Shown here in pieces: positions 16,845 through 16,883 of a stretch of DNA of 64,000 nt. The DNA is taken from sequence record PQ511151.1. One strand, 5' to 3'. A model generated the notes under the pieces. The model was not told the DNA's origin, did not search any database, and saw only the letters and a list, made by a program, of their open reading frames with translations. Made by a program: the position numbers and the translations under genes. How positions within the stretch are numbered: the stretch's first letter is position 1; the number at the start of each line of letters is the position of its first letter. The stretch is from Escherichia phage NHEP36.

Positions 16845-16883
16845 GTTTACATTATAGATGGACTATAGTATAGTAGTCCTATC
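16845..16883 (+). promoter_or_regulatory. Early promoter embedded in palindrome (GTTTAC, 18 nt, TATAGT; arms GGACTA/TAGTCC)
   Basis: Member of a repeated cassette GTTTAC-N18-TATAGT-AGTCCTATC; approximate coordinates. Confidence 0.55.

Follow-up and report, generated by a model that had tools for sequence, protein, structure and literature searches.

The 64,000-nucleotide stretch of Escherichia phage NHEP36 DNA analysed here (PQ511151.1; the window) contains four copies of a compact cassette, at 16845, 36895, 37404 and 57074, in which an early promoter is interleaved with an inverted repeat and followed by a small open reading frame. The reading that we favour, to which we give a probability of roughly 70%, is that these are PeSL-type cassettes combining an early promoter, a hairpin that forms on read-through RNA and insulates neighbouring transcription units, and a patch of homology for recombination. 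The evidence comes from the layout of the cassettes, from covariation across early promoters of this phage group and T4, from the kind of mismatches that the helices tolerate, from the dependence of pairing on upstream termination, and from deletions and insertions in related genomes.

Layout of the cassettes in NHEP36

The window is a segment of a Mosigvirus genome (RB69-like, Tevenvirinae, T4-type), and its interval 14000-22000 is about 98% identical to Mosigvirus phages such as JN02 and GADS24. The + strand carries the early genes 43, uvsX, 41, imm, sp, 61, 56, dda, 39 and rIIA/B together with denB, ndd, 52, motA, 32, frd, td and nrdAB, and the tail-fibre genes are on the - strand. A first-pass annotation had claimed four sites sharing a -35, an 18-nt spacer and a -10, and we found them exactly as described, with GTTTAC or GTTTAT as -35 and TAYAGT as -10. 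The composite pattern GTTTAY-N16-19-TAYAGTAG has four matches in the window, all on the + strand, against 0.00 expected from 100 dinucleotide shuffles. With TTTACA taken as the -35 hexamer, the spacer has the 17 bp that are optimal for sigma-70; TTTACA-17-TATAGT matches the sigma-70 criteria at 10 of 12 positions, and the cassette sites fit the genus-wide early-promoter consensus. Judging from this consensus and from T4 orthologues, the cassettes are probably active promoters.

Cassette 1 (16845-16883, +; -35 GTTTAC at 16845-16850, -10 TATAGT at 16869-16874) lies between imm (16592-16840) and sp/spackle (16904-17197), gene names being those of the RB69 and GADS24 annotations. Cassette 2 (36895-36933, +; -35 at 36895-36900, -10 TACAGT at 36919-36924) follows a denB-like ORF ending at 36882 and precedes an 87-aa ORF (36951-37214), and cassette 3 (37404-37442, +; -35 at 37404-37409, -10 TATAGT at 37428-37433) separates a 46-aa ORF ending at 37401 from a 66-aa ORF (37462-37662). 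The -35 of cassette 4 (57074-57112, +; -35 GTTTAT at 57074-57079, -10 TATAGT at 57098-57103) overlaps the stop codon of a frd.2-like ORF (56682-57074), and a small ORF with its ATG at 57137 and its end at 57384 comes after it. In all four, the stop of the upstream ORF (16840, 36882, 37401 and 57074) falls 0-12 nt before the -35 in A/T-rich intergenic sequence, and the 3' end of the cassette leads into a Shine-Dalgarno (SD) sequence and an ATG (16904, 36951, 37462 and 57137); the small ORFs downstream encode 97, 87, 66 and about 82 aa, the latter three being hypothetical. The copies share about 80% identity over 44 nt. By blastn, about 155 Mosigvirus records have the cassette, as do JS98-like phages (Dhakavirus). 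Acinetobacter phage Acj61, which is distant from both genera, gave a 42-nt match of 86% identity, which may be a true family member or a chance likeness to a promoter.

The -10 had been described as sitting inside an inverted repeat, which was confirmed by RNA folding: stems of 10-11 bp (G·U allowed) with a 6-nt loop span the -10 in all four cassettes, with free energies of -11.1 to -18.7 kcal/mol and z-scores of -3.0 to -5.7 against shuffles. Spacer sequence provides the 5' arm, TATA or TACA, the first four bases of the -10, are held in the loop, and the 3' arm is made of the GT of the -10 plus AGYCCTATC, ending at about +1. The hairpin of cassette 1 (16857-16883; 5' arm 16857-16866, loop 16867-16872, 3' arm 16873-16883; -11.1 kcal/mol, z -3.0) has a shorter core of 6-7 bp; those of cassettes 2 (36907-36932; -13.2 kcal/mol, z -3.4) and 3 (37415-37442; -13.7 kcal/mol, z -5.1) follow the same plan, the latter with U·G wobble pairing (two G·U pairs). 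Cassette 4 (57085-57112; 11 bp, -18.7 kcal/mol, z -5.7) has the stem GGGCTA/TAGCCC in place of the GGACTA/TAGTCC of the other cassettes, a compensated G-C pair in line with the earlier claim that changes in both arms keep the palindrome. Outer helices reaching from the -35 region over the SD were weak in three cassettes (RNAfold), and we did not rely on masking of the SD by such a helix, given whole-region z-scores of only -1.7 to -2.6. A scan of the whole window against Rfam gave no match at the gathering threshold.

The consensus over 51 early-promoter-like sites of JN02 is TGnTAttAT-AG(a/t)CCTATCAA. Its part downstream of the -10 resembles the 3' arm of the hairpins, so the 3' arm AGYCCTATC, or "AGNCCTATC", is largely generic early-promoter consensus and no family mark; the mark of cassettes 1-4 is a spacer complementary to this generic 3' arm. 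The same consideration applies to a related set of sites that the first-pass annotation had recognized by the endings TAGACCTATC or TAGACTTAC. Because AG(A/T)CCTATCAA is the general early-promoter consensus of JN02, the sites ending in TAGACCTATC are simply early promoters and do not make up one family. Those at 23587 and 39972 have no helix above background and that at 15529 has weak spacer-to-SD pairing only, but the site before the ORF at 28326 does have a hairpin spanning the -10. This last cassette (28268-28306, +; -35 ATGTAC at 28268-28273, -10 TACTAT at 28292-28297) has the geometry of cassettes 1-4 with another stem, GGTCTAT-gatact-ATAGACC (28283-28302; -8.3 kcal/mol), in which an A-U pair is swapped to U-A relative to the family of cassettes 1-4, and it precedes the ATG at 28326. 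A third stem family is represented at 37665-37701 (+; -35 TTGTAC at 37665-37670), where the -10 TATAAT (37689-37694) lies entirely within the loop of TGAGAGC-agagtataat-GCTCTCA (37678-37701), ahead of an ndd-like ORF (37739-38185); this motif has three copies in JN02 (loci L010, L011 and L013) and is present in other relatives compared too.

Other hairpins were also seen in the window. The early promoter at 63461-63500 (ORF start about 63500) has a hairpin, CCACAA-gga-TTGTGG, that lies wholly in the spacer and does not span the -10, corresponding to another PeSL subclass. Unrelated to promoters are a strong hairpin with a 14-bp stem at 51923-51960, in the long tail-fibre gene region, and a 12-bp GC-cored stem between an A-run and a T-run at 10083-10110, which looks like a bidirectional terminator.

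Evidence for selection on the pairing

Complementarity was scored as the best ungapped helix between the spacer and the region from the end of the -10 to the ATG at every early-promoter-like site, and partner swaps, in which spacers were re-paired with the downstream regions of other promoters, served as the control (500 swaps for JN02, the whole genome of which was assembled for this promoter survey). Mean complementarity was 8.13 in JN02 against 6.23±0.19 in partner swaps (maximum 6.82 in 500), 7.44 against 6.14±0.35 in the window alone, and 9.40 against 6.53±0.25 in T4, where promoters were called by pattern only, the GenBank record of T4 carrying no promoter features. Furthermore, hairpins spanning the -10 were found at 15 of 45 early promoters of JN02 (6.1±1.9 expected) and at 8 of 30 in T4 (1.9±1.2 expected). 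The hairpin is absent at some early promoters, as at 16104, 16534 and 23587.

Alignment of many sites had been suggested by the first-pass annotation as a check on conservation of the palindrome, and we carried it out on 37 promoters chosen by an 18-nt spacer and a TAYAGT -10 alone. In this alignment 81.3% of pair cells were paired against 72.8±0.9 in shuffles (0 of 500), double changes occurred at 9 of 11 pairs, 35 cells were compensatory against 13.4±2.9, and slid registers gave 35-59% paired; many of the aligned promoters are orthologues or paralogues, and such relatedness inflates the shuffle statistics, whereas the diversity of stems is independent of it. In this regard, at least seven unrelated stem sequences were found in the same geometry in JN02, T4 and IMG/VR, for example GGGAGCA/TGCTCCT, TTGGTACAGGTT/GACCTGTACCAA and AGGATGA/TCATCCT, and AGCTGACAAGACTA/TAGTCTTGTCGGTT in T4. 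A strict pattern scan of IMG/VR returned 8 loci, and a looser one anchored on the -35, the -10 and ATCAA returned 35, many of them in unrelated phages and some with independent stems (TAGGTTCA/TGAACCTA and TAGGAAG/CTTCCTA). Additionally, orthologous hairpins of T4 and Mosigvirus have been kept through A-U to G·U and U·G to U-A changes. The T4 ipII/ipIII promoters have spacer-downstream helices, and a 14-bp hairpin of the -10-spanning type is present at the dmd-tifA promoter, a documented T4 early promoter (PMC9391042). Covariation beyond both the partner-swap and the shuffle controls supports the conclusion that the hairpin structure is under selection, as the first-pass annotation had proposed when it argued for constraints beyond sigma-70 contacts.

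Read-through RNA as the probable level of selection

That proposal had placed DNA and RNA structure side by side, and the mismatches favour RNA. Interior non-Watson-Crick pairs in the helices comprised 23 G·T, 6 A·C and 7 of other kinds. An excess of G·T over A·C is expected of an RNA, or sense-strand, hairpin, and a duplex palindrome has no reason for such a preference; this points to a hairpin that acts as sense-strand RNA rather than as duplex DNA.

Pairing also depended on what lies upstream. Across JN02 and T4, promoters with a canonical terminator at most 70 nt upstream had a complementarity of 6.23, equal to background, and those without one had 9.24 (n=64; Mann-Whitney p=0.003), a comparison in which just 11 promoters had a terminator, as called by a heuristic finder (GC stem plus T-run). 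Since complementarity is missing after terminators, it appears to be kept only where upstream RNA can run through the promoter, and since the promoter's own transcript starts at about the end of the 3' arm, the hairpin would be formed only by read-through RNA. These data indicate that the stem-loop half of the PeSL is a selected RNA element on read-through transcripts and no mere by-product of the repeat.

Recombination at the cassettes

The suggestion that the cassettes delimit recombination-shuffled units finds direct confirmation in a deletion in JM10, three indels in JN02 and a re-joining in LF82-1. Window positions 36400-37900 (1501 bp) align with JM10 in two pieces that extend over 992 bp of the JM10 genome, and the difference of exactly 509 bp is the distance between the cassettes at 36895 and 37404; the segment between them is absent from JM10. 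What remains there is one chimeric cassette, which agrees with cassette 36895 on the left, until the -10 hexamer begins, and with cassette 37404 on the right, beginning at the start region; the crossover falls within the -10/3'-arm block common to both. At 15529-15592, 26731-26794 and 39963-40048, the overlap of the alignments between the window and JN02 is a promoter cassette, and JN02 has an extra small gene between two cassette copies where the window has one copy. LF82-1 has a cassette that agrees with cassette 4 (57074) in its 5' half and is joined to another downstream gene. Breakpoints at cassettes, for which the first-pass annotation had suggested looking in related genomes, were present in JM10 and at three JN02 indels. 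Not all indels relative to JN02 lie at cassettes, those at 57975-58331, at 59436-59535 and at the tail-fibre tip being elsewhere. According to our proposal, a repeated cassette of 40-60 bp would offer a homology patch through which recombination could delete, insert and re-join the small genes that it flanks.

Several further differences were noted in these comparisons. A 115-aa ORF between frd and td (57971-58318) is present in the window and absent from JN02, with its junction off the promoter cassettes, and another JN02-specific insertion, at 56659-56685, lies beside the SD and ATG of promoter 56624. The interval between gene 32 and frd (window 56400-57700) is highly plastic, ranging from 1.3 to 2.15 kb among Mosigvirus relatives, which have duplicated frd.2-like paralogues with a promoter cassette before each. 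The distal tail-fibre/adhesin region at 43493-47343 has no close match in JN02 and the adjoining 47343-56685 is just 83% identical, which marks an exchange of a host-range module.

Proposed role of the hairpin and alternative explanations

Each cassette would supply a strong sigma-70 early promoter, made up of an UP-like A/T stretch, GTTTAC and TAYAGT, which would initiate near the A of CCTATC and drive the adjacent small gene. RNA initiated at this promoter would lack the 5' arm and would not fold, and read-through RNA would form a stable hairpin between two cistrons; the start sites, the read-through and the 3' ends at the hairpin are what we infer for NHEP36. Thirty hairpins of this type were compiled from the window, JN02 and T4 (mean dG -12.7 kcal/mol), and none has a U-tract: the next 8 nt contain 1.5 T on average and 3 at most. 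In cassettes 1-4 the stem is followed by 8 nt that contain 0-3 T, unlike the G+C-rich stem and U run of a canonical intrinsic terminator, and a terminator scan of the + strand did not list these cassettes. The helix ends 15-43 nt before the ATG across the 30 (18-25 nt in cassettes 1-4), and the SD of cassettes 1-4, located 6-12 nt beyond the helix, is unpaired in the local fold, in contrast to the masking of the e/soc/49 type. A textbook intrinsic terminator is ruled against by the absent U-tract in 30 of 30 hairpins, and a translational mask by the free SD and by the distance between helix and ATG. Lacking a U-tract and leaving the SD free, the hairpin is probably neither of the two, and its likeliest role would be to insulate neighbouring early transcription units from one another at the level of read-through RNA. 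Insulation could be achieved by attenuation, by pausing or by a protected 3' end for the upstream message, as in REP-type intercistronic hairpins. REP elements are intercistronic hairpins that stabilise mRNA, are not fused to promoters and are not phage elements; the cassettes resemble them in having a stable hairpin without a U-tract just past a stop codon in polycistronic RNA, and by this analogy a stabilising role may apply here. Our literature search found no usable T4 transcript-end or term-seq data.

The original PeSL proposal is stricter, with the hairpin as a terminator or attenuator that stops upstream polymerase so that each small gene is transcribed from its own promoter only. It draws on the finding that the PeSL211/210 stem-loop cut lacZ expression as much as rrnB T1 (Arbiol 2010, PMC2839356). 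The Mosigvirus record OL960576 annotates a 'terminator' beneath the cassette, and the mutual exclusion of hairpins and canonical terminators upstream of promoters is what would be expected of functional equivalents. The absence of a T-run after any of the 30 hairpins speaks against it, as do the textbook terminators with GC stem, TTCG loop and T-run that these genomes use elsewhere (15503-15524, 20691-20712 and 29572-29587) and the AT-rich composition of the stems compared with the polyG/polyC stems of RB49. Without a U-tract in 30 hairpins, the terminator activity measured for one GC-rich stem-loop of RB49 is not simply transferable, and we regard strict termination as possible but doubtful.

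A role at the level of DNA is unlikely. A cruciform or single-stranded DNA hairpin might stall replication or attract nucleases such as endonuclease VII, the palindrome then serving mainly recombination and the formation of mini-circles, and both the position of the JM10 crossover within the -10/3'-arm block and the report that stem-loops blocked sequencing reactions unless betaine was present (PMC2839356) would fit. However, the two cassettes are identical over a longer run in that block than anywhere else, so homology by itself is enough, and indels also occur at promoter cassettes that have no such hairpin; a 10-bp AT-rich cruciform is unlikely to extrude, and the strand-asymmetric G·T bias together with the dependence on upstream termination points to RNA. 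Even less probable, in our view, is an operator, a palindrome recognised by a dimeric protein of phage or host origin that would turn early promoters off. Although the palindrome does overlap the -10, and the shut-off of T4 early promoters has been described as incompletely understood in its mechanism, the variety of unrelated stems in one geometry leaves no common recognition sequence, symmetrical double changes preserve pairing and not sequence, and a G·T preference would be meaningless for duplex DNA; moreover, about 16-17 bp, or some 1.5 turns of the helix, separate the centres of the arms, and an association with absent upstream terminators would be unexpected. Finally, a functionless palindrome inherited by descent in four paralogous copies of one duplicated promoter would account for their identity and for the generic 3' arm, but it is hardly credible given the excess over partner swaps and shuffles, the compensatory and wobble changes inside the family and the maintenance of orthologous hairpins in T4 and Mosigvirus despite base changes.

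Relation to known PeSLs and other promoter hairpins

The resemblance to PeSL modules, already pointed out in the first-pass annotation, extends to the whole layout, which matches point for point that published by Arbiol 2010 (PMC2839356): an upstream stop in AT-rich sequence, an early promoter (in the window predicted to be strong from its sequence), a stem-loop, an SD and an ATG, with the stem-loop placed between -35 and -10 or overlapping the -10 and with G-T pairs allowed. The RB49/phi1 PeSLs share with the cassettes of the window this full layout, the -10-overlapping subclass, the small ORF and repeats in plastic regions, and a mini-circle model has been proposed for them (PMC2839356). Moreover, RB49 ORF192 compared with phi1 parallels the window compared with JM10, a single chimeric cassette replacing two cassettes and the gene between them. 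They differ in that the RB49/phi1 promoters are perfect TTGACA/TATAAT and their stems polyG/polyC, whereas the cassettes of the window have T-even type promoters (GTTTAC...TAYAGT) with a conserved AGNCCTATCAA start region and AT-rich stems with 3-4 G-C pairs; terminator activity has been shown for one RB49 stem-loop, and the cassettes of the window are known from sequence. Of what the mini-circle model implies, it is the deletion product that was seen here, in JM10.

PeSLs were later extended to T4/PST and KVP40/nt-1 (Comeau et al. 2014, PMC4122927), and these share the promoter type (TTTACW-N17-TAYWAT in T-even phages) and the association with indels. The published stem-loops of T4/PST lie just upstream of the promoter (PMC4122927), whereas the stem of the window cassettes spans the -10. 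A canonical terminator, AAAGGAGCC-ttcg-GGCTCCTTT at 15503-15524, follows gene 41 and abuts the -35 of promoter 15529, which is the T4/PST arrangement with the stem-loop upstream. The elements of the T-even IP locus (Repoila et al. 1994), as summarised in PMC2839356, combine T4 early promoters with weaker, AT-rich stem-loops, and on that summary they resemble our cassettes in T4-type early promoters and in the AT-rich stem-loops alike. The T4 genes e, soc, 49 and I-TevI have a promoter inside a hairpin that controls translation (reviewed in PMC3014915). As in our cassettes, the promoter is in the 5' part of the helix, and RNA initiated upstream folds and RNA initiated locally does not; however, these are late promoters whose helix sequesters the SD or AUG, whereas the SD of cassettes 1-4 is outside the helix. 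The literature searched, which did not reach Repoila et al. (1994), contained no published description of such cassettes in RB69-like phages. The sequence comparison supports assigning the cassettes to the PeSL type, already known as a kind, to which their occurrence in RB69-like phages would be an addition.

A possible second class of early promoters

Many early promoters of JN02, T4 and the window have a spacer of another kind, in which an anti-SD run (TTCTCCTCT...) is complementary to the SD of their own gene; the resulting helices reach 14-15 bp. In the window this arrangement occurs at 27689-27746, where TTCTCCTCTGGTT pairs with AACCAGAGGAGAA over 13 bp, and at 56624-56684, 15529-15590 and 22209-22267. 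The helices of JN02 reach 14 bp, and T4 shows the arrangement upstream of regB, for instance. Read-through RNA would have its ribosome site masked by such a helix, and RNA initiated at the promoter would not, which is the logic of e/soc/49, although those T4 cases use late promoters. We tentatively put forward that T-even early promoters, those of T4 included, are systematically embedded in RNA helices in which the spacer is the 5' arm and the origin of the transcript sets the fold, an idea that for now we hold as a conjecture more than as an expectation. In the first of its two classes, the boundary between cistrons would be insulated by a hairpin on read-through RNA; in the second, spacer-SD pairing would keep read-through RNA, that of the later middle mode included, from being translated, so that the proteins would be confined to the immediate-early period. 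The reviews surveyed describe no such early-promoter helix system and no spacer-SD pairing. If true, this would extend the paradigm of the late genes e, soc and 49 genome-wide and would give early-gene shut-off a post-transcriptional part.

Implications for T4-type phages

For annotation, our results advise caution, as AGNCCTATC belongs to the promoter consensus and automated 'terminator' calls at the cassettes are doubtful. The hairpins also provide a concrete handle on how tightly packed early transcription units may be insulated from one another. On the reading that we favour, small accessory genes, many of which serve anti-defence or host range, would be acquired, lost and re-joined by T4-type phages at the cassettes, and knowing the cassettes would help to predict where such genomes break.
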